A DNA stretch of 42,935 bases from contig CANKTL010000002.1 of NCBI GenBank assembly GCA_947486405.1, positions 1 to 42,935 of the forward strand, written 5' to 3'. Source of the stretch: a bacterium. GTDB taxonomy: Bacteria; Margulisbacteria; Marinamargulisbacteria; CANKTL01. Positions 2 to 33,682 of the stretch are shown one piece after another. Both the position numbers and the translations under genes were made by a program. A model generated the notes under the pieces. The model was not told the origin of the DNA. It did no database searches and saw nothing but the letters and a program-made list of their open reading frames with translations. Every line of letters begins with the position of its first letter. Positions within the stretch are counted from its first letter, which is position 1.

Positions 2-574
2 GGCGCCAAATTGGGTGAAAAAGGCATATATATTTCGATTGATGAGCGACCCGATCACGTGGTCATGGACGCCGAATCCTTAGGCCTAAACATCCAACCT
101 TTTTTAGAAAACGGCCAAATTCAAATTATTGATGTCACTAAATATTTTTCGACCTCTGAAATTGGGGATAAAGGCATTTCAATTACACGGATTGTGGACG
201 ATATCCTGGGCTTTGTAAAAAAATCGGGGGCCACACGCTTGGCCGTCGATCCAGTAGCGCCGCTGGTCTTTGCCGAGAAAAATATTCCCCAGGTTGCTGA
301 ATATATTCGGCAATTGGTATTTGCGGTTGAAGATACTGTCGGCTGCACCACATTATTGACCTCTTATGTGCCGGTGGGCTCTGAAAAATTCAGCCAGCAT
401 GGCATAGAAGAATTTGCGGCATCCGGGATTGTTCTCCTGCGTTTGCGCCAAAAAGAAAATCAAATTATTCGATCGTTGTGGGTGCGGAAAATGCGCGGAA
501 CCCGAATTGATTTGTCGGAATATAGTTTTGAAATTTTGCCGGCCCGTGGGCTGGTGTTGCGTCAGCCAATTTAA
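2..574 (+). CDS. KaiC-like RecA-superfamily ATPase domain protein, C-terminal part (5' end outside the window)
   Basis: The frame is open from nt 2 (GAK precedes the TTG at 11). GEKGIYISIDERPDHVVMDAESLGL...GCTTLLTSY...WVRKMRGT resembles the region after Walker A in KaiC/RadA-type ATPase domains. No Walker A is present, so the N-terminus is missing. Stop TAA at 572-574, 3 nt before the next gene. Confidence 0.6.
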   Translation, partial: GAKLGEKGIYISIDERPDHVVMDAESLGLNIQPFLENGQIQIIDVTKYFSTSEIGDKGISITRIVDDILGFVKKSGATRLAVDPVAPLVFAEKNIPQVAEYIRQLVFAVEDTVGCTTLLTSYVPVGSEKFSQHGIEEFAASGIVLLRLRQKENQIIRSLWVRKMRGTRIDLSEYSFEILPARGLVLRQPI

Positions 575-577
575 ACA

Positions 578-1702
578 ATGCCGAAAATTTTAGTTGCCGA
601 TGATGAGACCAATATTTTAATGCTAACCGGCGTTATGCTGCGTGAAGCCGGCTATGAAGTTATTAAAGCCAGCAATGGGCAAGAGGCCGTTGATTTGGCC
701 ATATCCGAGCAGCCAGATTTGATTATTACCGATGTCATTATGCCCAAAAAAGACGGCTTCGAAGTGTGTAAAACGGTGCGAAATACCGCCTCAATTTCAG
801 ACACTCCCATCATTATTTTGTCCGCAATGGGCGATGAATACAACAAAATCACTGGCTTTGATGAAGGTGCCGACGATTACGTCACGAAGCCGTTTAGCTC
901 AGAAGAATTAAAAGCCCGCGTGCGTGCATTGTTGCTGCGGTATCAAAGTCGGAACCGAGCCTCTGCCGCCAAACCCAGCGTTTCCCGCCAAGAACCCCAT
1001 CCCGAAGCCCCGGAAATCGACCGCATTTCATCGGGTGTGCCCGAGTTGGATGATCAACTCTATGGTGGCATTCCCACGGGCTCAAATATCTTGGTGATGG
1101 GACCGATTGGTTCAGGAAAATCAAGCTTTTCACGGCGGTTCTTGGCCGAAGGACTGCGCAATCATGAGCGCAGTTTGTTTGTTGCCATTGATGATGACCC
1201 CAAATTAGTGCGCAAAACCATTTCATCGTTTTTAGAAAAGCCGGTCGCGGAATATGAACAGTATGGCTTTATGCGACTGGTAGATGCCTATAGTTGGAGC
1301 GCATTTAACGAAACCGACCACGAAAGCTTTGCGATTAATGGGATTTTGGAACTCAACCAATTGTCTGGTGTCATTTCAGATGCTGGATACGAATTGGGCC
1401 AAACCATTCAAAACAAGCTGGGCGGCCGACGGGTCATTGATTCCATTTCCAGCTTATTGGTGAATTTCGAATTGCCTTCGGTGCAACGGTTTATGAGTCA
1501 AATTGCACGCACCTCCCACTCCTTTGGTGGCGTGACAACCTTGTTTATATTGGAGGCCGGCACGGTGTCGGATCAGGTCTTAAACAACATCAAATATATT
1601 ATGGATGGTGTGATTGAATTTGGAGACGACAAAGGCCTGCGGTCCGTCCGCGTCGCGTCGATGAAATGGACCCAATATGTCACTGATTGGCGGGCCCTAT
1701 AA
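578..1702 (+). CDS. Response-regulator receiver domain fused to a KaiC-like ATPase domain
   Basis: Canonical receiver residues are present: ILVADDE, DLIITDVIMPKKDG, IIILSAMGD, DDYVTKPF. After a Ser/Pro-rich linker comes a KaiC-like domain with GVPELDDQLYGGIP and Walker A GPIGSGKS. Confidence 0.8.
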   Translation: MPKILVADDETNILMLTGVMLREAGYEVIKASNGQEAVDLAISEQPDLIITDVIMPKKDGFEVCKTVRNTASISDTPIIILSAMGDEYNKITGFDEGADDYVTKPFSSEELKARVRALLLRYQSRNRASAAKPSVSRQEPHPEAPEIDRISSGVPELDDQLYGGIPTGSNILVMGPIGSGKSSFSRRFLAEGLRNHERSLFVAIDDDPKLVRKTISSFLEKPVAEYEQYGFMRLVDAYSWSAFNETDHESFAINGILELNQLSGVISDAGYELGQTIQNKLGGRRVIDSISSLLVNFELPSVQRFMSQIARTSHSFGGVTTLFILEAGTVSDQVLNNIKYIMDGVIEFGDDKGLRSVRVASMKWTQYVTDWRAL

Positions 1703-1706
1703 GTCC

Positions 1707-3035
1707 ATGCAGGCCATAATTTTAACCGGTGGAAATGGCGCACTGCTTCGGCCCCTCACTTTTTCAACGCCCAAGCCCTTATTACCGCTACTTAATCAAC
1801 CTATTTTGCAATACATCATTCGACTGTTGATTCAGCAGGAAGCCAGCGAGATCATCGTAGCGGCTAATTATCGAAGTGAGCTGGTATTTTCCTGGATTAA
1901 CCAGCAACAGTGGCCGGTTCCGGTGCGCGGGCACGCCGTGGACGAATATAGGGGGAGCGCCCAAGTACTTTGGGACATGCGCGATCAACTTGCTGAGCGA
2001 TTTTTGGTTATTTTTGCAGACACCTTAGTAGATTTGCCAATGAAAGTCGCGTTTGACGCATTTTCAGAGTCAGGGGCCGCCGTTTGGATGGGACTCAGTG
2101 CGGACTCGGATCCGTTTTCACCGGCGTCACTGCGGGTACAGGACGGCGTGGCAACCGCGCTGATTCCGGGCCCATTAGAGAGTGGCTCGACGGCGACGGA
2201 TTTGGCCAGTGATGGGCGCTTTTATTTTTTAACCCGCGACGTGATTACCCAATATGGGGAAACCACGGCCAATATATTCCCTGATGTGGCGAGTGAGTTG
2301 ATAACCGCGAACGGCAGCATGCCGGTTGTGGCGGCCCCAGGGTTTTGGTCGGTGTTGGGCCGGTTAGAGCCCTACCTGGACGCGAATTTTACGCTCTTGT
2401 CTCAGCTGGGGATATCGTACGTGGATCCACGCGCAACAGTTCACCCTAGTGCCGTCATTCATGGCCCCGCGTTAATTGGTCCCGACTGTCACATCGGTGA
2501 AAACAGCGTGGTTGGGCCCTATGTGGTGATGGGACCGAATATTCAGGTCGGCTCTGACACGACAATTCAACATAGTATGGTGTTCACCGCAGTTCGCATT
2601 GGTGCAGGAGTTCATATTGATCGCTCGGTGATCGGTTTCTCTGCAACGGTTGAAGAAGGCGTTAGCATTGCGCCTCTGTGTATTGTGGGGGCCTATACCT
2701 GCATCGGCGCCAATTCAAAGTTAGCCTCGGGAAGCCGAGTTGGGCCCAATTTATCGGTCGCCCCTGATAGCCACATCGCCGACATTTTGTTTCCGCCCGA
2801 TCCCCTCAATGAGGATAACGATAACACTCAGAGCGCCCAGTATAAGGGCCTGGCCGCAATTGAATATGATGTGTTTAGGGTGATATCTCTTACGGGAGAT
2901 ATCACCGCCGCTCAAATTGCACTAAAGCTGGACTTGCCCAGTGAGTCCGTTATTCCAATTCTAAGTACGCTCGTACACCGTTCGCTGTTGATTCGCTCCG
3001 AATCGGGTGAGACTCGATTTAGTGTTCGTCCTTAA
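1707..3035 (+). CDS. Sugar-phosphate nucleotidyltransferase with a hexapeptide-repeat (left-handed beta-helix) region and a C-terminal winged-helix-like tail
   Basis: N-terminal signature ILTGGNGALLRPLTFSTPKPLLPL. Hexapeptide-like run IGENSVVGPYVVMGPNIQVGSDTTIQHSMVF..IGAGVHIDRSVIG..VEEGVSIAP. The tail ITAAQIALKLDLPSESVIPILSTLVHRSLLIRS looks like a wHTH. ATG 1707 is preferred over ATG 1677, which overlaps the upstream gene; the start is uncertain. Confidence 0.7.
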   Translation: MQAIILTGGNGALLRPLTFSTPKPLLPLLNQPILQYIIRLLIQQEASEIIVAANYRSELVFSWINQQQWPVPVRGHAVDEYRGSAQVLWDMRDQLAERFLVIFADTLVDLPMKVAFDAFSESGAAVWMGLSADSDPFSPASLRVQDGVATALIPGPLESGSTATDLASDGRFYFLTRDVITQYGETTANIFPDVASELITANGSMPVVAAPGFWSVLGRLEPYLDANFTLLSQLGISYVDPRATVHPSAVIHGPALIGPDCHIGENSVVGPYVVMGPNIQVGSDTTIQHSMVFTAVRIGAGVHIDRSVIGFSATVEEGVSIAPLCIVGAYTCIGANSKLASGSRVGPNLSVAPDSHIADILFPPDPLNEDNDNTQSAQYKGLAAIEYDVFRVISLTGDITAAQIALKLDLPSESVIPILSTLVHRSLLIRSESGETRFSVRP

Positions 3036-4248
3036 GTGCAGATGCTTCGCTGCCTTGCGCAGGGGTCATTAATTCGTTTAGCCGCGCTGCCACTTGGGCC
3101 ATTGTCCAGCTTTCCGGCGTTTCCCAAAGTGATTTGATCAGCGCCAAATAGCCCTCACCATAATGGGAACGCAATGAGCGATTCTCCGCGTTTAAAAAAT
3201 GGCTGATCGAAACATCCTCCCCCTCCAGAACATCAGCCAACAATCTTGCGTATGACTGAATCTCGTCTCGAAACCCTATTTCTCTGGTTTGGCCAAAAGT
3301 TAAACTATTCGAATTCTGAAATTGATGTGTTGACCAATATTTCCTAATCCCCCGAACCTGGTTTCGGAGCGGGTCACGGAATTCATCTTCAGAGCCACCA
3401 GGACCATGAACCATATAGGCACATTCAAAATCCAGGACCCGAAGTCCTGCAATTTTGCCCGATTCCGGCTCAATCTCTACCAAAAAATTGCTGGTATTCA
3501 AATCATTTTGGACGACGCCCCCCCTATTTAACTCCGCCAATGCCAAAGCTATCAAATAGACAATTTCCTTTTTCTGCTGCACAAGCTGGCCGCGTTTTTC
3601 AGGTATTCCCCACTCATGCTCGTTTAATGCAAGCACTTGATTCAACGGCACTCCCGGCAGTCGCTCCATCACAATATGACCGATGTCTAAATGGTCTGGC
3701 CCTTTACTTCGATACCAGCCGTAAATGTGCGCCACGCGTCCTGGGGCTGCCAGTTGCGCCATTTGTTGGATCAAAATAGACCTCACAAACATGATCCAGT
3801 CCCAACATTTTTCAAGGCCCTGTGAGCTCGGATTATATAAGGTACTTTCCTTGTCCACGGCGTCCACATCTTCAACCGTTATCGGAGGCCGGCAACTTTC
3901 AATTCGCGCGTGTGCCTCGATTGCCGAAGAAATATGCCCTTTTCCGACTTCAATAACCCCTTTTTCAACAACTACCAAATGATCCTTGCTTGGGGACCTC
4001 AAAACCGGATTTTTCCCATGAAAAAGCATCCCTTGCCGCCGCAAGGGAAAATACATCTTCAATTCCTCACGGGTAGACTCATGATGCTCCGGCAATCCCG
4101 AAACCTCTACAAGCAGCCGCAATCGGTCTACTGTATCTGTCGGAATAGTCTTGCTTGAGCTAAGTGGCCTGGGGCTTATTGAAAAAAGTCTACTCCGCGT
4201 TATGACAGGTGACCTTGCAGGTATGGCAATTTGTTTATATTGATTCAT
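3019..4248 (-). CDS. Atypical protein-kinase-like fold protein, tandem paralog 1
   Basis: 409 aa ORF with SD AAGGAG upstream. Kinase-like layout: glycine-rich EVGKGHIS, hinge-like IVMERLPG, catalytic-loop-like GGVVQNDLNTSNFLV (canonical HRDLKPxN), and VLDFECAY (canonical DFG). Roughly half the residues are identical to the 4404-5645 product by eye. Confidence 0.6.
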   Translation of the reverse strand: MNQYKQIAIPARSPVITRSRLFSISPRPLSSSKTIPTDTVDRLRLLVEVSGLPEHHESTREELKMYFPLRRQGMLFHGKNPVLRSPSKDHLVVVEKGVIEVGKGHISSAIEAHARIESCRPPITVEDVDAVDKESTLYNPSSQGLEKCWDWIMFVRSILIQQMAQLAAPGRVAHIYGWYRSKGPDHLDIGHIVMERLPGVPLNQVLALNEHEWGIPEKRGQLVQQKKEIVYLIALALAELNRGGVVQNDLNTSNFLVEIEPESGKIAGLRVLDFECAYMVHGPGGSEDEFRDPLRNQVRGIRKYWSTHQFQNSNSLTFGQTREIGFRDEIQSYARLLADVLEGEDVSISHFLNAENRSLRSHYGEGYLALIKSLWETPESWTMAQVAARLNELMTPAQGSEASALKDEH

Positions 4249-4281
4249 ACTCGAACTCCTTTTCGTATTATTTATCTGGTC

Positions 4282-4320
4282 CTAAGAAACATGCGGCGTC
4301 GCAGCAGCCAAAAACACAGA
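4282..4320 (-). pseudogene. Relic of the last 12 codons plus stop of dinG, carried along by the tandem duplication
   Basis: The minus strand reads tct gtg ttt ttg gct gct gcg acg ccg cat gtt tct tag (SVFLAAATPHVS*). The true dinG end at 5677-5715 reads gaa gtc gtg ttg gcg gcg gcc aag cac cac gtt tct tag (EVVLAAAKHHVS*). That is 26 of 39 nt identical, and the block sits at the same distance from the downstream ATG. Confidence 0.6.
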
Positions 4321-4403
4321 CTGACATGATTACGTGCACATCCGAGAGCCTATCACAAAAAGTACGCCGCGATCACGCTCGGGCAATGATACTTGCTTTA
4401 TCT

Positions 4404-5645
4404 CTAAACAATAGACACAGTTCTGGACGGTGCCTTGGCGCTGGCAGAGCGCGCTCTAGGAGTCATGAGCTCCTGTAGCTGGTCTGCGATTTGCGACATG
4501 GTTAATGAAGTAGGATTAGACCAAAGTGTTTGAATCAATTCCAAATAGCCCTGGCCATAGCGACTTACCACTATTTTTCTCTCCTGGTCGCTTATCAGGT
4601 AAGGACTGACAAATTCACCGACAAATATTTCTAACAAAAGTTTTGAAAATGATTGAATTTCATCCTTAAATCCAATATCAACCACTGCTTTTACGGTCAG
4701 TATACGGCTTTGATCTGCGGATACATAGTTTCTTATACCAAAAATTTCGTTTCGAAGCGGGTCGTCAAATTTGTCATCCACTCCACCGGGGCCATGCACC
4801 AGATACGCGCATTCAAAATCCAGCACTTTAGTACCCAGAAGGGTACCCGTGTCAGGATCGATGTCCACCATAAAATTGCCTGGATTTAAATCGTTTTGAA
4901 CAACGCCTCCCCGATGCAATTCCGCCAATGCGACCGCAATTTCGCAAACAATTTTTTTTCGAAGCGCGACGATTTGCGATATATCTTTACCCGAGCGCCA
5001 TTGTTCATTTTGATTGGTCAACAGTTGCTTTATCGTGATTCCAGGTAGCCGGTCCATAATAATATGGCCCATATCGTCGTTTCCGCCATCTCCACACTTT
5101 GTGCGATACCAGCCATGAATGTGAGCCACTCGCTGTGGTGCTACTTGTTGTGCAATTTCCTGAATTAAAATCGATCTCACAAACGTGATCCACTCCCAAT
5201 ATCGATTAGGTCGGGTCGATCCCGCTATAAATATATGTGATGATTTGTCGATAGTATCAATAGATTCAGCTATGTCCCGTCCATGTACCGGTACGATCCG
5301 GGCACGCGCGCTCATCGCAACTGAAATATGGCCTTCCCCCACTGCTTCAAGGCTCGTATGAAGGACCACCAAATGGTCATGACTAGGCGATTTTACAACC
5401 GCCTGATCCTTTGCAGAGCGAAAAAAAGAGCGCTTATTCAAGGGAAAATAGGCTTTCAACTCAGTCCGGGTTTTCCCATCATCCCGATCGAGTGTTGAAA
5501 CGGTGTACAGCAATGCTAGCCGCTCCCTGGGATCTGTCGGTATTTCCTGCCGTGATTTAAGTGGTGCTGGGCCAGCCGAAAAAAAACGCCTTAGTCCACT
5601 CTTAGACTCTCCTGCAGTCACCGCAATTTTTTTGTACTGAATCAT
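4404..5645 (-). CDS. Atypical protein-kinase-like fold protein, tandem paralog 2
   Basis: 413 aa. Same motif set as paralog 1: AVGEGHIS, IIMDRLPG, GGVVQNDLNPGNFMV, VLDFECAYLVHGPGG, DPLRNEIFGIR. It starts 31 nt after the dinG stop. Confidence 0.6.
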   Translation of the reverse strand: MIQYKKIAVTAGESKSGLRRFFSAGPAPLKSRQEIPTDPRERLALLYTVSTLDRDDGKTRTELKAYFPLNKRSFFRSAKDQAVVKSPSHDHLVVLHTSLEAVGEGHISVAMSARARIVPVHGRDIAESIDTIDKSSHIFIAGSTRPNRYWEWITFVRSILIQEIAQQVAPQRVAHIHGWYRTKCGDGGNDDMGHIIMDRLPGITIKQLLTNQNEQWRSGKDISQIVALRKKIVCEIAVALAELHRGGVVQNDLNPGNFMVDIDPDTGTLLGTKVLDFECAYLVHGPGGVDDKFDDPLRNEIFGIRNYVSADQSRILTVKAVVDIGFKDEIQSFSKLLLEIFVGEFVSPYLISDQERKIVVSRYGQGYLELIQTLWSNPTSLTMSQIADQLQELMTPRARSASAKAPSRTVSIV

Positions 5646-5676
5646 ATCCGAACTCCATTTCTTTTTTATTCTTGTC

Positions 5677-8349
5677 CTAAGAAACGTGGTGCTTGGCCGC
5701 CGCCAACACGACTTCTAAACTTCCCTCTACCAATTGATACTCTGAAATCTCGGCCAAAAATACCGACCGATACGATTGCGTATACAGACGGGAATCTAGC
5801 ACAAAAAGAACGCCCCGATCCCGCTTAGAACGAATCAGTCGGCCAATGCCCTGTCTAAACTTAATCACGGCCTGAGGCAAATAATAATCTCGAAACCCGT
5901 TGCCCCCCTCTAAATGGATGATATTTTGGCGCGCCTGCAATACCGGGTCGCTGGGCACAGGGAATGGCAATTTCACCATAATCACGCAGCTCAGAGCTTG
6001 ACCGGTGATATCCACACCCTCCCAAAAACTGTCCACGCCCAACATCACCGCGCGTCCTTTTTCAGCTTTAAACCGCGCAATAATACTTTCTTTTGGGCCT
6101 GATAATTGTTGGCAATACAGGGGAATATTGGCGTCGCGCATTGCGTCCCGCATGCGGTGATAGACGGCCTTCATTTGTTTAATTGAGGTAAACAGCACCA
6201 ATGAATTGCCGCCCAAATGAGTCACAATAGCCATCACTTGATTGGCCACATCGGAATCGCGCTCAACGCCAGATACCTTGGCGTGAATCGCCTGCACTGC
6301 ATAGTTAAACTCAGTGCCAAATATTCGAGTTTCCACCGGCTTACGGCAGCGATCTAAGCCCATCTGAGACACAAAATAATCCAGCTTTCCGCTGACCGAC
6401 ATCGTCGCCGATGTAAAAATTACCGCCGATTTTGCAGCCAGCACTTCGGATTCAATAATGCGTTGGCACCGCAACGGCGCTGACAAAATCTCGAAAAAAT
6501 CCCGCCGCGAGCCCGGAATACGCTCTACCCACAGCACATGACCCGGATCGGGATTCTCTATTGCCGCGATATCCGCACGCATGGTGGCGATCTCTTCTTT
6601 TAACGCAATCCAACTGGCCACGGGCATTGAGGGATCGTTAGCCCGCGCTTCAGCCAAGCTACCTATTTTTTTCAGCAACTCATCCATCGTGTTAAGTGTT
6701 TTGGTAATCGACTGCCATTTTTTGGACAGCATCACCTCATCGGTAATCCCGATTTGTATTACGCCACGCTCAACATCTTCCTGCCCGGTTTCAGTTATTT
6801 TTTTCAGATGCTCCTGCAACTTTGTTTTCCGTGCCCGAAATTGCTGCCATTCCGTGTGCACTTCGGACAGACCGCCGCCCCAGGTATCAGCGATCAGATT
6901 GACCACTTCGGCCACTCGGTCCGGCCCCAGACGCCGTGTAAATGCCCCTGTAACCGCGTCCGCAAAACTGTGTGCCTCATCAATCACCAAAAACCGATAA
7001 GCCGGCAGCACGGCGTTATCTGCCGCGACATCCGACAACACCATAGCGTGATTGGTAATAATCACATGCGCCCCCTGTGCTTTTTGCCGCATTCGGGCCA
7101 CAAAACACTTGGAATTGCGCGAATAATCAATGGGTTTAAAGCGCCGAAATGCCAACATCGACGCAAAACGCTGATACAAACTCGGATGAAGCTCCGACAA
7201 ATCCCCGGTTTCGGTCAATAACACCCAGCGATATACGGCCAAATACTCAATCACCGGTACCATTCGCACTCGCGAGCGCATCCCCGCAATCATCTCATCC
7301 AAAAATTCAATATCAACAAAGTTTTCCTTGCCCTTCACCACGGCCACTTCAAACCCAAAGGGAATGATGCGTCGCAACGTGGCAATGTCCTGGTCCACCA
7401 ACTGCGATTGCAAATGCTTGGTCTTGGTCGCCACCACCACGGGTGTACCGCTGGCCAAGGCGAAATAAATCGAGGGAATCAAATATGCCATCGACTTCCC
7501 AATTCCCGTTCCCGCCTCCAGCACCGCGTGATGCTCGTCATATAGGGCATCTGCTACTTCAGCCGCCATTTCTTCCTGCTGGGGCCGTTCTTCAAAATTC
7601 CCCAAAATAGATTTCAGTCCTACCACACCCGTTAAGCACTCGGCTGCTTCCGCCCGCCAATCCTTAATCTCGGGTCGCGCCGCAATTTCGTCGCGAGTCA
7701 GGTTCGGCAAATAGTCTTTGTAATCAAAACTACGAATTGCGGTCACATCAGGACAAAAATGGGTAAAGACCGCTTTTAACCCGGGCTTGTTATCGCCCAA
7801 TACGCGGGTGGCCTCGATAAACACCAGCGGATCCAGCCGCCGCAGGTCAACAAACATTCGCAACATAATTTCAGCCAATACCGCCGCATCAGCCAAGGCC
7901 CGGTGGCTTTCAGCAAATTCAATTCCCAACGCGGTCGCAAATAATGCCAGCTTATGGCTACCGAAATTGGGATACAAAATCAGCCCCAAATCTCGGGAAT
8001 CAAAATAGGGGTTTTCAAGAATCGGGCGACTCAGCCGCCGCAACTCGGTATTCACCATTTTAAGGTCAAATTCAACGTTGTGGGCCACAAAGTAACTGTC
8101 TCCAATAAAGGCCAACACGTCTTCCACAATATCCGCAAACTGCGGCGCGGTGACTAAATCTTCATTGGTGATGCCGGTTAAATACTGCACATAAGGGGGG
8201 ATTTGCCGCTCTGCGCGAACCAAGGACGAGTATTGCGCGACAATCTGTCCATCTTGCACCCGCACCATACCAATTTCTATGACTTCGTTGAGCTCAGGTG
8301 TCAGGCCCGTAGTTTCAACGTCGACACAGACAAAAGTGGGAAAATGCAC
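5677..8349 (-). CDS. dinG: DinG-family ATP-dependent helicase with an N-terminal DnaQ-like 3'-5' exonuclease domain
   Basis: GTG start. Exo motifs VDVETTGL, HNVEFDLKM, HRALADA. SF2 helicase Walker A AGTGIGKS and DEAH box VIDEAHSF. 890 aa. Confidence 0.9.
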   Translation of the reverse strand: MHFPTFVCVDVETTGLTPELNEVIEIGMVRVQDGQIVAQYSSLVRAERQIPPYVQYLTGITNEDLVTAPQFADIVEDVLAFIGDSYFVAHNVEFDLKMVNTELRRLSRPILENPYFDSRDLGLILYPNFGSHKLALFATALGIEFAESHRALADAAVLAEIMLRMFVDLRRLDPLVFIEATRVLGDNKPGLKAVFTHFCPDVTAIRSFDYKDYLPNLTRDEIAARPEIKDWRAEAAECLTGVVGLKSILGNFEERPQQEEMAAEVADALYDEHHAVLEAGTGIGKSMAYLIPSIYFALASGTPVVVATKTKHLQSQLVDQDIATLRRIIPFGFEVAVVKGKENFVDIEFLDEMIAGMRSRVRMVPVIEYLAVYRWVLLTETGDLSELHPSLYQRFASMLAFRRFKPIDYSRNSKCFVARMRQKAQGAHVIITNHAMVLSDVAADNAVLPAYRFLVIDEAHSFADAVTGAFTRRLGPDRVAEVVNLIADTWGGGLSEVHTEWQQFRARKTKLQEHLKKITETGQEDVERGVIQIGITDEVMLSKKWQSITKTLNTMDELLKKIGSLAEARANDPSMPVASWIALKEEIATMRADIAAIENPDPGHVLWVERIPGSRRDFFEILSAPLRCQRIIESEVLAAKSAVIFTSATMSVSGKLDYFVSQMGLDRCRKPVETRIFGTEFNYAVQAIHAKVSGVERDSDVANQVMAIVTHLGGNSLVLFTSIKQMKAVYHRMRDAMRDANIPLYCQQLSGPKESIIARFKAEKGRAVMLGVDSFWEGVDITGQALSCVIMVKLPFPVPSDPVLQARQNIIHLEGGNGFRDYYLPQAVIKFRQGIGRLIRSKRDRGVLFVLDSRLYTQSYRSVFLAEISEYQLVEGSLEVVLAAAKHHVS

Positions 8350-8352
8350 CCG

Positions 8353-9144
8353 CTATCGCACTGAAAACGCGATTGTTTGTTGGATATTCCCGTTAAATCC
8401 GTACCGCATTCCATAATTCACGATTAATTCAATTTCGTAATCCCCAGGGGTCAATGTCATCGCAGTTAAAAATTCACGACTCATTTTGCCCAAAATCGGC
8501 CAGCTTCGCGTAATATCTCCGCTACTCACCTTATCGCGGCTAACAAACGGCCAAAGGCCACCATATTTATACAACGAATAGGTAACCACTGGTCGGTCTT
8601 GTACCGAGCCATCATTACGCAGCACCAACTTGGTCTGCTTGGTGTCTTTTAAATAGGTGAAAGAGTCAATTGCCATCGCGTGGGTTTCCAGAGCAGGCAC
8701 GCTGACATAAATGGGGATACCAAAGGCCAATCCAATCATAATTCCCGACTCAGTTTTGCCAGGCTTGCTTTCAAGCTGCTCGGTCACCACCAACTTGGCG
8801 GTGTATTCTGCTTGGGTATTGCTGGTCACTAAGATTTCATACGGAATCGTTAACTTCCCGCCATTTTTCTTGGTTTTCTTCACCGAAGAGACGGTTTTAA
8901 TCCAGCTTAAATTGCGCGGAGCGGTGTCATCCGACCGAGAATTCCCCTTGGCATCAATCGTAAACGGTTGAACACTAATGTCTACCCCAGCTTGTTCGGT
9001 TTCAACAGTCACTACCCCAGTAACTTTTTGGCCGGGATTCGCCTGAATTTCCATGATGTCGGGGGACGCTGACATGGCTGATAGATGAATCGGCATCCCG
9101 ATTATCATTAGCGCCAGAATCAAAATTTGCACTATTCGCGTCAT
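8353..9144 (-). CDS. Secreted two-domain beta-sandwich-like protein of unknown function
   Basis: Signal peptide MTRIVQILILALMIIGMPIHLSA. Two segments have alternating beta-strand patterns (PGQKVTGVVTVETEQ.. and TKLVLRNDGSV..LTPGDYEIELIV). The stop lies 3 nt before the dinG GTG. Confidence 0.55.
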   Translation of the reverse strand: MTRIVQILILALMIIGMPIHLSAMSASPDIMEIQANPGQKVTGVVTVETEQAGVDISVQPFTIDAKGNSRSDDTAPRNLSWIKTVSSVKKTKKNGGKLTIPYEILVTSNTQAEYTAKLVVTEQLESKPGKTESGIMIGLAFGIPIYVSVPALETHAMAIDSFTYLKDTKQTKLVLRNDGSVQDRPVVTYSLYKYGGLWPFVSRDKVSSGDITRSWPILGKMSREFLTAMTLTPGDYEIELIVNYGMRYGFNGNIQQTIAFSVR

Positions 9145-9193: not shown

Positions 9194-9940
9194 TTATTGG
9201 CGAACAAATTCAATAATGACGGTTGCAATATAGGTGCCCGGAAACTTCGGCCACGAAAATGCGCCTCGGATATACACGTCCATCGTATCTTTACTCACCA
9301 ACGAGTAGTCGATCAATTTTTGCTTACCCGCTGTAATTCGTGCCAGGTCATTTCGATTATCATTAAATGCAGGGCTAGCATCTGTGATCCACACCCATGG
9401 GGCTGAGGCGTTGGTTGTAACTACTGCCTCGTTGTTCATTGCGACCCAAGCCCGAATTGGTACTGTTGTTAGGTAGGCATTTGGATGAGTCAACAATGAA
9501 TCTTTGCGCGTATTAAGCGGGGTATTGTCTCCCACGTGGATCAAACCAGAAATATTGGTGGTGCTCACCAACTGGTTAGTATCCACATCAGCGAAATAGC
9601 CTTGTGCAGAATGGTTGGTATAAATTAGCAAATCACCTGGCAAGTTATTTTTAAATGTCATCGTTACTTTAACCGAACCGGTTACCTGCCACGGGTCGTT
9701 TGCGAATGCTACGGCATTGGGGGTCGAGGTGGTGCCAGCTGCCGTTCCCGGAATAAAGGTTCGTGCTGGATCAAGGGCAACAGTACCGAAACTAGCCGTC
9801 CCGCCGGATGTTAGGGAAATGTCGTTAACAGTCGCCACGATCGCAGTAATCGTAATCGGGTTGGAATCAGTGGCCCAAGCAGCTCCAGTGGCCGAAACCA
9901 TCATCATCACGCCCGCCAATATCAATTTTTTAATTTTCAT
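9194..9940 (-). CDS. Secreted protein of unknown function (fimbrial-subunit-like or WxL-like beta-rich)
   Basis: Signal peptide MKIKKLILAGVMMMVSATGAAWA. Thr/Ala/Asn-rich and beta-rich. Alternative starts at ATG 9961 and GTG 9964. Confidence 0.55.
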   Translation of the reverse strand: MKIKKLILAGVMMMVSATGAAWATDSNPITITAIVATVNDISLTSGGTASFGTVALDPARTFIPGTAAGTTSTPNAVAFANDPWQVTGSVKVTMTFKNNLPGDLLIYTNHSAQGYFADVDTNQLVSTTNISGLIHVGDNTPLNTRKDSLLTHPNAYLTTVPIRAWVAMNNEAVVTTNASAPWVWITDASPAFNDNRNDLARITAGKQKLIDYSLVSKDTMDVYIRGAFSWPKFPGTYIATVIIEFVRQ

Positions 9941-10095
9941 AACTGATCCAAATCCTTTCATCACTACGAGGGTTCAATACGCACATAACGCGCTCATTTT
10001 CTTCTATCTTACTTAATTATCGAAATTTAAGAAACAAAATTTCACAGAATCTCGACGCCGATCCCGTTTATATGTTATGAATTATAGCTCTTCCT

Positions 10096-10894: not shown

Positions 10895-10950
10895 TCCCAA
10901 TTGACGGACGCCCAACCACCTGAATATAATGTCGGCTTCGCTGCCAATTT

Positions 10951-11026
10951 GCGGGATTAGCTCAGTTGGTAGAGCGTCTGCTTGCCATGCAGAAGGTCGC
11001 CAGTTCGAACCTGGTATCCCGCTCCA
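10951..11026 (+). tRNA. tRNA-Gly (anticodon GCC) with encoded CCA
   Basis: GCGGGAT..ATCCCGC acceptor, D-arm GCTCAGTTGGTAGAGC, anticodon loop TTGCCAT, T-arm GCCAGTTCGAACCTGGT, discriminator T then CCA. Confidence 0.92.
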
Positions 11027-11051
11027 TCTATTTGTAAGGACATTTCTTATT

Positions 11052-12335
11052 ATGAAAGTTTTAAAAAACAAACGAAATAATTTTACCGTTGACCTTGAAA
11101 TTGAAGTAAGTCAACCAGAATTCAATGCGGCGATGGATATCGCATTTAAAAAAGTGGTCAAAAAGGCCAAAATTCCGGGATTTCGACCTGGAAAAGCCAC
11201 GCGCGCCGTATATGAGCGCTATTATGGACCCGGCCCGATTATTTCAGAGGCCGTGATTGAAGCGGTTAATACGGCTTATCAACTGGCGATTAAGGAATTG
11301 GACCTGTTTGTCGTGGACCAACCACGAAATGTGGATATTTCCGAATATAAAGAAAACGAACCGATTATATTTAGCTGCCAAGTAGACACAAAACCTGAAG
11401 TAAAATTGGGCAAATATAAAGGGGTGAAGGTCTCGAAAGAAGACAACGCGATCACTGAACAGGCGATCGATGATGCCGCCCGCCATTTGCAAGATAAGCA
11501 CGCCGAATTTGCGGAAATTGACGGTCCTATTGCGACCGATCAATTGATTCGCTTCACTATGATAGCCAAAATCGACGGCGAAATTCTTGAGGATTGGACC
11601 CGCGAAAACACCAGCATCCGAGTGGGTGCGAAGCAATTTGGTGATGACTTTGATCGTGCCTTGATTGGTCTGTCTAAAAATGACCGCAAACAATTTCAGG
11701 TGAGCTATGACGCCGATTATGCCGATGCGACCGTCGCCGGTAAAACGGTTGAATTTGACATCGAAATTTCAGAAATCCGGGACAAAGTACGTCCCGAATT
11801 TAACGATGATTTCGTGGTTAAGAATTCCACCTATTCTTCAGTCGCCGATTTTCGCGCAAAAACACGTGTTGAGCTTGAGGAAGCGGCCAAAGAGCAGGCT
11901 GAGCAAAAGATAAACACCGCTGTGATTGAAGCCGTGGTCGCAGAGTCGAAAGTGGACATTCCTGCCGGTATGATCCAACGTGAAATTGATTATTCGATTT
12001 ACCAATTTGATCAAAACTTGCGCCGCTCACGATTGAATCTGGAGTACTACCTCAAATTAACGCAAAAAACGATGGACGATGTCCGCCAAGATTTTGCGGA
12101 ATCGGCTGAGAAAAAAGTGCGGGCGGATTTGGTTCTTGAAGCCGTTAGCGAAACTGAAAAAATCGAAGCCCTAGAAACTGATATTGAGGCTGAAATTCAA
12201 AAATGGAATTTACCTGAAGGTCAAACATTAGCCACCTTGAAAGAAAATCCAAATTTCAATTTTGAGCAACTGCGTTCTGGTATTTTGGAACAAAAAACAG
12301 TGGCGTTTTTGAAAGAACACGCTAAGATTTCATAA
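11052..12335 (+). CDS. tig: Trigger factor
   Basis: MKVLKNK..; ribosome-binding signature GFRPGKATR; length and acidic C-terminal arm are typical. The ATG at 11052 is the first start downstream of tRNA-Gly. Confidence 0.9.
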   Translation: MKVLKNKRNNFTVDLEIEVSQPEFNAAMDIAFKKVVKKAKIPGFRPGKATRAVYERYYGPGPIISEAVIEAVNTAYQLAIKELDLFVVDQPRNVDISEYKENEPIIFSCQVDTKPEVKLGKYKGVKVSKEDNAITEQAIDDAARHLQDKHAEFAEIDGPIATDQLIRFTMIAKIDGEILEDWTRENTSIRVGAKQFGDDFDRALIGLSKNDRKQFQVSYDADYADATVAGKTVEFDIEISEIRDKVRPEFNDDFVVKNSTYSSVADFRAKTRVELEEAAKEQAEQKINTAVIEAVVAESKVDIPAGMIQREIDYSIYQFDQNLRRSRLNLEYYLKLTQKTMDDVRQDFAESAEKKVRADLVLEAVSETEKIEALETDIEAEIQKWNLPEGQTLATLKENPNFNFEQLRSGILEQKTVAFLKEHAKIS

Positions 12336-18456: not shown

Positions 18457-18585
18457 GGGCGGTCAGAAAAGGCGTGAGATGTGCAATTTCTCGTTTTGCG
18501 CAGACTACCAAGGAGCGGAGCGAATGCGCAGCGGTGTAGTTAAGCAAAGCGAAAATTGTGCAGATTGCGTCTTTTGTGACTGCCC
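18457..18585 (+). repeat. Long-hairpin intergenic element, copy 1 (core 18466-18576)
   Basis: Near-identical to 33563-33677 and reverse-complementary to 40981-41089. It folds by hand into one long imperfect hairpin. It ends 1-10 nt from the stop of the convergent PorV-like gene. Confidence 0.85.
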
Positions 18586-33562: not shown

Positions 33563-33677
33563 AAAAAAGTCGTGAGATGTGCAATTTCTTGTTTTGCGCA
33601 GACTACCAAGGAGCGGAGCCATCAGGCGAAGCGGTGTAGTTAAGCAAAGCGAAAATTGTGCAGATTGCGTCTTTTTT
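33563..33677 (+). repeat. Long-hairpin intergenic element, copy 2
   Basis: AAAAAAGTCGTGAGATGTGCAATTTCTTGTTTTGCGCAGACTACC...GGTGTAGTTAAGCAAAGCGAAAATTGTGCAGATTGCGTCTTTTTT. It is flanked by A6 and T6 runs and sits between the convergent rpmG and 33683-34102 genes, so it could serve as a bidirectional terminator. Confidence 0.85.
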
Positions 33678-33682
33678 GTTGC

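Follow-up and report, generated by a model that had tools for sequence, protein, structure and literature searches.

A conserved leader as a probable duplication scar: two tandem genes for divergent kinase-like proteins behind dinG in a marinamargulisbacterial contig

Why should the sequence in front of two related genes be better conserved than the genes themselves? This question is raised by a pair of adjacent genes on the minus strand of contig CANKTL010000002.1 (NCBI GenBank assembly GCA_947486405.1), which comes from a bacterium of the Marinamargulisbacteria. The window, that is, the whole stretch of DNA that was analysed, comprises 42,935 nt (positions 1 to 42,935, forward strand). Gene A (4404..5645, minus strand) codes for a divergent Hanks-type kinase-like protein of 413 aa and gene B (3019..4248, minus strand) for its paralog of 409 aa, which carries the same set of motifs. 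An initial description, made from the letters without database searches (the sequence-only reading), saw in them atypical kinase-like paralogs and took their conserved leader for a shared operator, promoter or RNA leader. Our analysis makes another history likely: a gene for a divergent kinase-like protein, here called X, would have been inserted after dinG and duplicated in tandem together with the dinG tail, and the conserved leader would be the scar of that duplication.

Both open reading frames were recovered at the positions and on the strand given above, and the relationship of their products is clear. BLASTP aligns the two proteins with 49% identity and 65% positives (E = 2e-132), and all the shared blocks pointed out earlier (FVRSILIQ, RVAHI.GWYR, GGVVQNDLN..NF, VLDFECAY.VHGPGG, DPLRN...GIR.Y and ELMTP) are indeed present. 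At the nucleotide level, the codon-aligned coding sequences are 55-56% identical, with 39% identity at third positions and 34% at four-fold degenerate sites, compared with 25% expected by chance. Because the number of synonymous substitutions per site (dS) is 1.5-3.4, depending on the method, and the ratio of non-synonymous to synonymous rates (dN/dS) is 0.13-0.31, A and B are old paralogs with nearly saturated synonymous sites, and both copies evolve under purifying selection. Synonymous identity is flat along the coding sequence (24-52% per 50-codon block), on which ground patches of gene conversion within it were rejected. In public assemblies of the same contig (L081, L082), four positions in 15.6 kb differ from the window (608, 3801, 4702 and 10065); two of these differences are non-synonymous and fall in the kinase-like genes (I/K at 4702 in gene A and D/N at 3801 in gene B).

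The similarities that had drawn attention to the leader are easily confirmed. The 19-mers CACGTTTCTTAGGACAAGA and CATGTTTCTTAGGACCAGA are identical at 17 of 19 positions, GGAGTTCG with its Shine-Dalgarno sequence is identical before both genes (5649-5656 and 4252-4259), and the 16-mer GTTTCTTAGGACMAGA has just two occurrences in the whole window, one in each leader. In the last 46 aligned columns before the ATG, 34 are identical (74%), so that the leader does exceed the 55-56% identity of the coding sequences taken as a whole; on the other hand, 108 of the 1203 46-nt windows of the coding sequence (9%) equal or surpass it in identity, and by itself the 45-nt leader is therefore not unique in its conservation. 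The upstream similarity, however, goes further than the sequence-only reading saw and runs over 132 aligned columns, 97 of which are identical (73.5%); the best 132-nt window of the coding sequence has 95.

What these columns contain is the end of the neighbouring gene. CACGTTTCTTAG represents the last codons and the stop codon of the upstream gene (5677..8349, minus strand), which encodes an 890-aa DnaQ-type 3'-5' exonuclease fused to a DinG/XPD-type helicase (RNase_T, E = 4e-32, and Helicase_C_2, E = 5e-47). With its final codons, CAC GTT TCT TAG, this upstream gene makes up 12 nt at the start of the gene A leader, and the similarity between the A and B upstream regions reaches some 100 nt further into dinG. 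It starts with a 75-nt block (5752-5826 versus 4306-4380), identical at 56 of 75 positions (74.7%); then follow a 51-nt stretch found in copy A alone, 24 nt ending in the stop codon, and a spacer of 31 or 33 nt. The source copy of the duplicated tail, i.e. the last 49 codons of dinG and its stop codon (5677..5826, minus strand), reads KRDRGVLFVLDSRLYTQSYRSVFLAE...AAAKHHVS and stop. Before gene B there is a dead copy (4282..4380, minus strand, with a fossil stop codon TAG at 4282-4284), which in the dinG frame reads ERDRGVLFVIGSRMCT, a stop, SCQSVFLA, AATPHVS and a final stop. This relic is damaged by an in-frame stop codon TAA, a D-to-G change at a conserved Asp and an in-frame deletion of 17 codons (51 nt). 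Spacer A (5646..5676, minus strand), the 31 nt between the dinG stop codon and the gene A ATG, is A-rich and has the Shine-Dalgarno GGAG inside GGAGTTCG; spacer B (4249..4281, minus strand; 33 nt) is its copy, with 23 of 31 aligned positions identical. Thus, what had been taken for a shared regulatory leader has as its 5' part the end of dinG (before A) or the fossil of that end (before B), and as its remainder a Shine-Dalgarno spacer. Since a duplication that copied the end of dinG accounts for the conserved leader, no new regulatory element is needed. Two other candidates were tried and rejected, namely a Bacteroidota-type -33/-7 promoter sought by eye (the TAnnTTTG of the dinG copy is mutated in the relic and the spacing is wrong) and a small open reading frame, or a read-through or frameshift fusion of gene A or dinG into the relic and leader (the frames differ and stop codons intervene).

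The copying can be followed over the entire length of the pair. Seven repeat blocks across both genes hold a register of 1388-1397 nt, and colinear head-to-tail similarity extends from 5826/4380 to about 4425/3033 through coding and non-coding DNA, with a 23-nt junction (4381..4403, minus strand) between the gene A stop codon and the start of the relic. By its constant register, its colinear similarity and the joining of unit end to unit start, we classify the arrangement as a tandem segmental duplication. The repeat unit, as delimited by the alignment, is ~1.39 kb long, starts ~150 nt inside dinG and consists of the dinG tail, a ribosome-binding spacer of 31-33 nt, and the gene. This resembles tandem segmental duplications with a flanking-gene fragment and gene conversion in that the unit starts in the upstream gene and leaves a dead gene-end fossil, and also in that the two copies agree better in one part than elsewhere. 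It differs in that the well-preserved part is the non-coding fossil with the spacer, whereas the selected coding bodies are saturated, and in that conversion would here be deduced from the sequence itself.

The compactness of the arrangement bears on its expression. Because only 31 nt separate dinG from gene A and no terminator-like site was found in the duplication junction (4381-4403) or elsewhere in the 155-nt spacer between A and B, dinG, A and B are probably co-transcribed; the 3' end of gene B overlaps by 17 nt (3019-3035) the 3' end of the convergent nucleotidyltransferase gene (1677-3035, plus strand), which fits the same picture. For translation, each copy of X would have a GGAG of its own, 8 nt ahead of the ATG. 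In the overlap, the final codons of gene B lie antisense to the conserved C-terminus of the nucleotidyltransferase (3019-3035).

What do the duplicated genes encode? The sequence-only reading had recognised no family, and indeed A and B fall below every curated Pfam and NCBIfam cut-off. Below threshold they match kinase models without exception, always on residues ~165-325: Pkinase, Kdo, ABC1 and APH; LanKC, LanL, TOMM kinase, PknB, Bud32, LegK1, RfaY and KdkA; MkoA and PD-T4-6 in PADLOC; and YopO and RIPK1 among PDB sequences. Pfam PF00069 gives 22.8 bits for gene A (E = 6.9e-5) and 18.4 bits for gene B (E = 1.5e-3), below its gathering threshold of 31.7 bits. Compared by hhalign in local mode with eight Pfam-verified Hanks domains, A and B alone aligned over 137 columns (residues 191-345) with a probability of 99.2% (E = 6e-20), and in global mode the family aligned with the same domains over 260 columns (residues 76-392) at 99.9%. 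A profile search of PDB sequences returned 300 matches with E < 0.01, and all the matches listed are protein kinases or Bud32/Kae1-type kinases. An AlphaFold2 (AF2) model had a predicted template-modelling score (pTM) of 0.78 and a predicted local distance difference test score (pLDDT) of 85-97 in the core; its multiple sequence alignment comprised 14 sequences, six of them from ordinary kinases, so that the model is not evidence independent of these, whereas hhalign is. An earlier AF2 run on an alignment of two sequences gave a pLDDT of 33 and was unusable. With the later model, Foldseek found 1521 matches in PDB at E ≤ 1e-3, of which the 50 listed comprise nothing but domains of protein kinases or pseudokinases, with RET, AAK1, TTBK1 and PknB as the best.

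The proposal of a protein-kinase-like fold with a non-canonical active site is therefore upheld by hhalign, by Foldseek and by the invariance of the catalytic Asp, Asn and Asp. The profile and model comparisons show the predicted X proteins to be highly divergent Hanks-type (eukaryote-like) kinase domains with an N-terminal extension of ~75 aa. PknB of M. tuberculosis, a Hanks-type kinase (PF00069), matches the model with a template-modelling score (TM) of 0.73 by target and a root mean square deviation of 4.4 (2fum_B). A and B share with Hanks-type kinases the bilobal fold, the G-rich loop, the catalytic Asp and Asn and the DFG Asp, as well as the P+1 loop, the αF Asp and the C-lobe helices. 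They differ in the N-terminal extension, in a DP(L/W/F)R(N/D) motif before the P+1 loop, and in being devoid of PASTA, transmembrane or other sensor domains. With LanKC-type models (NCBIfam NF038151 and NF038150, cut-offs 575 and 650 bits) they score 23-27 bits over ~90 residues of the kinase core and show no other domains; the lyase and cyclase domains of class III/IV lanthipeptide synthetases are absent from both A and B.

The catalytic loop QNDLNxxN and the metal loop DFE had been seen from the sequence, and their catalytic Asp, Asn and Asp are invariant in 8 of the 8 family members found. In gene A we assign the G-loop to VGEGHIS (102-108), β3 to TIDK (K134), αC to FVRS (S158 in place of Glu), the catalytic loop to QNDLNPGN (D252, N254, N257) and the metal loop to DFE (D276), followed by DPLRN..GIRNYVSADQ (295-312) and DEIQSF (328-333). 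A six-sequence alignment that includes a distant subfamily (described below) leaves N251, D252, L253, N254, N257, D276, D295 and P296 invariant, and likewise G303, Y307, S309, Q312, D328, E329 and S332. Invariance of D252, N257 and D276 extends to a 14-sequence alignment with ordinary kinases, in which they align to the Asp of HRD, the Asn, and the Asp of DFG. The P+1-like GIRNYVSADQ and the αF-like DEIQSF are kept, and these are features of protein kinases rather than of small-molecule kinases. Relative to Hanks kinases, HRD has changed to QND (the H is kept in relatives, which have HND), the RD Arg to Asn, the catalytic-loop Lys to Asn and DFG to DFE. The whole family has DLN(P/T)xN where Ser/Thr kinases have their loop Lys, and YVSADQ or YWSTHQ, instead of Y(M)(S/A)PEQ, where the APE Glu would be.

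The N-lobe is less straightforward. At the position of the αC Glu, gene A, gene B and their homolog on contig L091 have Ser (FVRS), whereas the distant subfamily keeps REY. In the predicted β3 strand (127-136), the subfamily has AIKK where the three close sequences have TIDK, AVDK and VIEK. In the global profile alignment D133 falls on the VAIK Lys and S158 on the αC Glu, with K134 one residue further on; in local mode the N-lobe is left unaligned. The earlier remark that there is no obvious VAIK lysine thus holds in so far as an Asp or Glu aligns to that lysine, and fails in so far as (I/V)(D/E)K lies in the predicted β3 strand with K134 only one residue off; absence of the lysine is not established by these alignments. 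The strand A.xA(H/R)ARI, which had been proposed as the VAIK equivalent, is predicted to be β2, not β3.

These features suggest nucleotide binding by the X proteins, which would then be either protein kinases of atypical mechanism or pseudokinases that bind ATP. That they are catalytically dead, serving as scaffolds or nucleotide sensors, is a serious possibility, although we rate it below even chances. It would agree with the Asp (D133) aligned to the VAIK lysine, with the Ser at the αC Glu position in A, B and the L091 homolog where the distant subfamily keeps AIK and REY, with the change of HRD to QND, of the loop Lys to Asn and the loss of the APE Glu, and with the presence of JAK2 JH2 pseudokinase domains among the top Foldseek matches. 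Against it, no family member has lost D252, N257 or D276, a Lys beside the aligned position (K134) is shared by A, B and the L091 homolog, and several active kinases, e.g. WNK with its moved lysine, do without the canonical Lys or the canonical Glu. The purifying selection on both copies bears on neither side of this question. A and B are like JAK2 JH2 and the WNK-like atypical kinases in having lost the β3-Lys/αC-Glu pair in the profile alignment while retaining the fold. They differ from them in retaining the catalytic Asp, the Asn and the DFG Asp and in the conserved neighbouring Lys.

The family is extremely small. In 1.84 billion representatives, searched exhaustively with HMMER, the paralogs were joined by one clear homolog, P0003 (a 216-aa fragment, E = 9.5e-21), and a small distant subfamily (P0004, P0014, P0015), the remaining matches being ordinary kinases at E ~1e-4. 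Among 5.8 billion protein clusters (90% identity), a word-indexed search recovered nothing but the two paralogs, and its profile version added only three members of the distant subfamily. In all, there are three close members (A, B and P0003) among ~15 billion predicted proteins. A pattern scan of 185,579 GTDB species representatives did not find the family, its one match being an irrelevant Paenibacillus kinase; the same kind of scan in JGI metagenomes yielded four loci, the best of which belongs to the distant subfamily. The family motifs are (H/Q)NDLN(P/T)xN, D(F/L)(E/G), DP(L/W/F)(R/A)(N/D)...Gxx.YxSxxQ and DE(I/L/V)xS(F/Y). Besides P0003, the only proteins that carry the family-specific motifs are those of the distant subfamily (P0004, P0014, P0015, P0024 and P0025; ~311-439 aa), one of which is labelled 'serine/threonine protein kinase' in one source. 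They share with A and B the motifs HNDLNPxN, DP(F/L)..(L/I)xGI(R/K)xYxSPxQ and DE(I/L)xSFG, the N-terminus M.(I/Q)YK.I and the overall length; they differ in being only 21-26% identical, in keeping the AIK Lys, the REY αC Glu and D(F/L)G, and in being encoded by single-copy genes in another context (HI0933-like, prepilin peptidase, YceI, MgtE). A literature search brought up general pseudokinase reviews only.

The P0003 gene lies on the 986-nt contig L091 (1-986; ENA ERZ28619560 scaffold_68357) and appears to be frameshifted near nt 200-215, where the upstream frame encodes part of the N-lobe (..VIEKK..QWIVFVRSLIAQ..). About 30 nt past its stop codon there is an open reading frame, MYKIFFPKHK..; since the family N-terminus reads similarly, M.(I/Q)YK.I, L091 may also have a second copy in tandem.

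How the pair came to stand behind dinG can be judged from one relative, contig L088, which was reached through P0027, the sole 73%-identical DinG in the 5.8-billion-cluster (90% identity) protein collection; DinG homologs among the GTDB species representatives are at most 32% identical and come from metagenome-assembled genomes of the FCB group. L088 is fully syntenic with the window (two hypothetical genes, dinG, and then the convergent nucleotidyltransferase, RR-KaiC, KaiC, ruvA and ruvC) and contains no kinase-like genes: the stop codons of its dinG and nucleotidyltransferase genes are 20 nt apart. As the sole orthologous locus found, it is without both genes and without the leader. Homology between the window and L088 stops exactly at CACCACGTT (5683), beyond which the window goes on with TCTTAGGAC... 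and L088 with AAATCCGATTACGCGCAATAG, its DinG extending six residues past the break point. The insert opens with TCTTAG (5677-5682), from which dinG takes its stop codon, and at its far end the nucleotidyltransferase stop codon is where the homology with L088 sets in again. By this comparison the pair is a lineage-specific insert of ~2.65 kb (3036..5682, minus strand, the limits being approximate), missing in L088, and the leader begins at the edge of the insert.

The order of events is then as follows. X was joined to dinG a few codons before the original end of that gene, so that the TCTTAG of the insert now gives dinG its stop codon. The relic carries the same joint as the A copy, CATGTT followed by TCTTAGGAC, and therefore the duplication came after the joining of X to dinG. 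Later, the unit of ~1.39 kb, with the dinG tail from ~150 nt inside dinG, the Shine-Dalgarno spacer and X, was duplicated in tandem, which left copy B preceded by a dead dinG-tail fossil and the same spacer, that is, by the conserved leader. After the coding bodies had diverged, gene conversion between the repeats, with the dinG tail as donor, would have kept refreshing the relic.

The insert could alternatively be old, the pair being ancestral at this locus and lost from L088 by clean deletion. We consider this somewhat unlikely. The G+C content and, more loosely, the codon usage of the pair are not clearly foreign, and the A/B identity of 34% at four-fold sites is nearly as saturated as the 28.6% of dinG between the window and L088. 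However, the pattern scan did not find the family in any of the 185,579 GTDB species representatives and there is next to nothing of it in 15 billion proteins, more distant DinG loci (L089 and L090) lack synteny and have other neighbours, and in L088 the C-terminus of DinG is longer, the stop codons are 20 nt apart and there is no scar. Because the family is so rare, gain is favoured over loss. Recent horizontal transfer was also considered and set aside. G+C content and G+C at third codon positions of the pair fall within the range of the neighbouring genes, which argues only weakly against it, as gene B correlates poorly with the pooled neighbours in codon frequencies (0.63, the lowest value; 0.74 for gene A and 0.74-0.88 for the neighbours).

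While the insertion of X and its tandem duplication with the dinG tail explain what the leader is, they do not by themselves explain how alike the two copies still are. Preservation of the upstream module far beyond neutral decay is a real residual anomaly of the sequence comparison: the probability of at least 56 identities in the 75-nt block, given a neutral identity of 0.34, is 7e-13. With L088 as the outgroup, the A and L088 copies agree against B at 14 sites of this block, A and B agree against L088 at 12, B and L088 agree against A at one, and all three differ at four, from which the tree ((A,B),L) follows. In it, very little change falls on the A branch, even at dinG third positions (0-4 of 25), and ~0.2-0.3 substitutions per site fall on the B branch. 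Such branch lengths are self-consistent with a neutrally decaying relic that split from the dinG tail far later than the coding bodies split from each other (at least ~0.8 per branch). The high-identity tract spans the tail, the spacer and the first ~10 codons of the gene (~130-210 nt). Since it ends ~10 codons into the gene and the synonymous identity of the coding sequences is flat, gene conversion is favoured: later conversion, or a later partial copy, of a tract of ~160-210 nt, with the selected dinG tail as the donor, appears the likeliest explanation.

Selection on the module itself would be the other way to preserve it. The copy of the dinG tail and the spacer might form a cis-element, for example an RNA leader, or a promoter or operator lying within the last part of dinG, that each gene needs; this we hold to be rather unlikely. 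Its attraction is that the 132-column module is 73.5% identical while the neutral sites of the coding sequences are randomised, that the module is non-coding in copy B, so that something must have slowed its decay, and that the identical 8-mer GGAGTTCG and 12-mer GTTTCTTAGGAC have been kept. None of the expected signatures was found, however, which also speaks against the regulatory part of the sequence-only reading. Rfam covariance models had no match at E ≤ 1 in 2800-6000 and matched only tRNAs in the whole window. The leaders fold no better than shuffled sequences and into different structures (minimum free energy z = 0.03 and 1.03; z = -1.9 and 0.8 for longer stretches), and a scan for sigma70-type promoters and terminators found none on the gene strand in either leader. 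Moreover, the 51-nt indel alters the spacing between the two conserved halves, and there is a mismatch every few bases throughout, 11 of the 19 falling at dinG third-codon positions, without any clustering outside motifs. The synonymous sites of the dinG copy have hardly changed since the A and B tails split (0-4 of 25), which fits a younger split better; constraint would have to act on nearly every position of ~130 nt, including the synonymous sites of dinG, and the 46-nt leader alone is equalled by 9% of the coding-sequence windows.

The remaining alternatives to tandem duplication of a divergent protein-kinase gene and later conversion of the dinG tail fare worse. One would make A and B small-molecule kinases like those of the Kdo/WaaP, choline-kinase, APH or Bud32 groups, which we regard as improbable. 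The catalytic loop (H/Q)NDLNxxN resembles those of Kdo, choline-kinase and Bud32-type enzymes; like the xxDLNxxN or HNDLxxxN loops of these groups (PF06293, PF01163, PF01633), it has neither the Ser/Thr-kinase Lys nor the RD arginine. P0003 scores above the gathering cut-off of the Pfam Kdo model (34.3 versus 21.3 bits), there are weak matches to Kdo, APH, Choline_kinase, Bud32, RfaY and KdkA, and a nucleotidyltransferase gene adjoins the pair. Nevertheless, the Kdo match spans only ~55 residues around the catalytic loop, gene A with 15.0 bits remains below the PF06293 gathering score of 21.3 and gene B has no match. In contrast to such enzymes, A and B have an activation/P+1 segment like that of eukaryotic protein kinases and an αF-αI region, and the profile alignment covers the P+1 loop (GIRNYVSADQ versus GT.xYMSPEQ) and αF (DEIQSF versus DxYSxG), both of them hallmarks of protein kinases. 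The best structural matches are to protein kinases, and the nucleotidyltransferase is kept in the relative that lacks the pair.

A bolder combination has a comparably small chance of being right. In it, A, B and P0003 would be a new kinase-fold family with a rewired site (an Asp-Lys β3, no αC Glu, QND/DLN and DFE) and a non-canonical reaction or nucleotide binding (AMPylation-like, or with an unusual metal or substrate), and the module of ~130 nt would be selected as a cis-element that couples both copies to DinG. Finally, it is very unlikely that the pair is an accessory element, such as an anti-phage Ser/Thr-kinase gene (PD-T4-6 or Mokosh-kinase type) that had landed among housekeeping genes: the insert is lineage-specific and lies between conserved genes, the family is extremely rare and gene A has weak PADLOC matches (MkoA, E = 3e-8; PD-T4-6, E = 3e-7), but these cover the generic kinase core (203 of 1112 profile positions in MkoA) with none for gene B below E = 0.05, no strong full-length match to PD-T4-6 or Mokosh and no partner genes, integrase, repeats or mobile-element ends were found, PHROGs gave no match and a plasmid tblastn search only ordinary pknB, the pair is not distinguished by its G+C content and is surrounded by housekeeping genes (clpXP, tig, ruvABC).

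Some points weigh against the insertion and tandem duplication of a kinase-like gene as outlined here. Both proteins stay under the Pfam Pkinase gathering threshold (22.8 and 18.4 versus 31.7 bits). The assignments in the N-lobe (G-loop, β3 Lys, αC) come from the global profile alignment and from the AF2 model, whose pLDDT in the N-lobe is only 55-75, and local hhalign aligns the C-lobe core only. There is a single relative genome, and, as it lacks the insert, it does not separate gain in this lineage from loss in L088. Gene conversion is deduced from rate heterogeneity within one pair of sequences, and co-transcription only from spacing and the lack of consensus terminators.

The pair is located in a housekeeping neighbourhood (clpP, clpX, tig, ruvA, ruvC). 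Since the neighbours are conserved in L088, which does not have the pair, we see no functional tie between the pair and the genes around it. Upstream of dinG there are two genes for hypothetical proteins of 263 and 256 aa with signal-peptide-like N-termini (8353-9144 and 9194-9964, minus strand), which have no Pfam match on record and no PADLOC match; L088 has hypothetical genes of similar size (264 and 271 aa) at the same positions. Elsewhere, the window carries a gene for a KaiC-like ATPase and then a fusion of a response-regulator receiver with KaiC (window 11-1702; Response_reg, E = 8e-29, and KaiC ATPase, E = 2e-23), in the same order as in L088. The trigger factor open reading frame (10929-12335, 468 aa) starts inside a tRNA-Gly gene (10951-11026) and is over-extended, the public annotation having 427 aa. 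Two copies of a ~112-nt element, 96% identical and with unrelated flanks, occupy intergenic positions (18467-18578 and 33565-33678, plus strand). On the plus strand it folds into one long hairpin (minimum free energy -59.6 kcal/mol, z = -7.05; z = -0.97 for the minus strand); it matches no Rfam family and is a candidate for a small structured RNA or a palindromic repeat element.

Nothing described here alters current understanding unless biochemistry shows unusual chemistry. If our reading of the active site holds, A, B and P0003 would represent a very rare and strongly rewired branch of the bacterial Hanks-type superfamily and a natural experiment on which kinase residues are dispensable. The fossil before gene B, preserved far above the synonymous sites of the adjacent genes, offers a small, concrete case for weighing gene conversion against selection in tandem repeats. 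A conserved leader can thus be a duplication scar that carries the end of a neighbouring gene, and automated searches for regulatory motifs could misread such scars.

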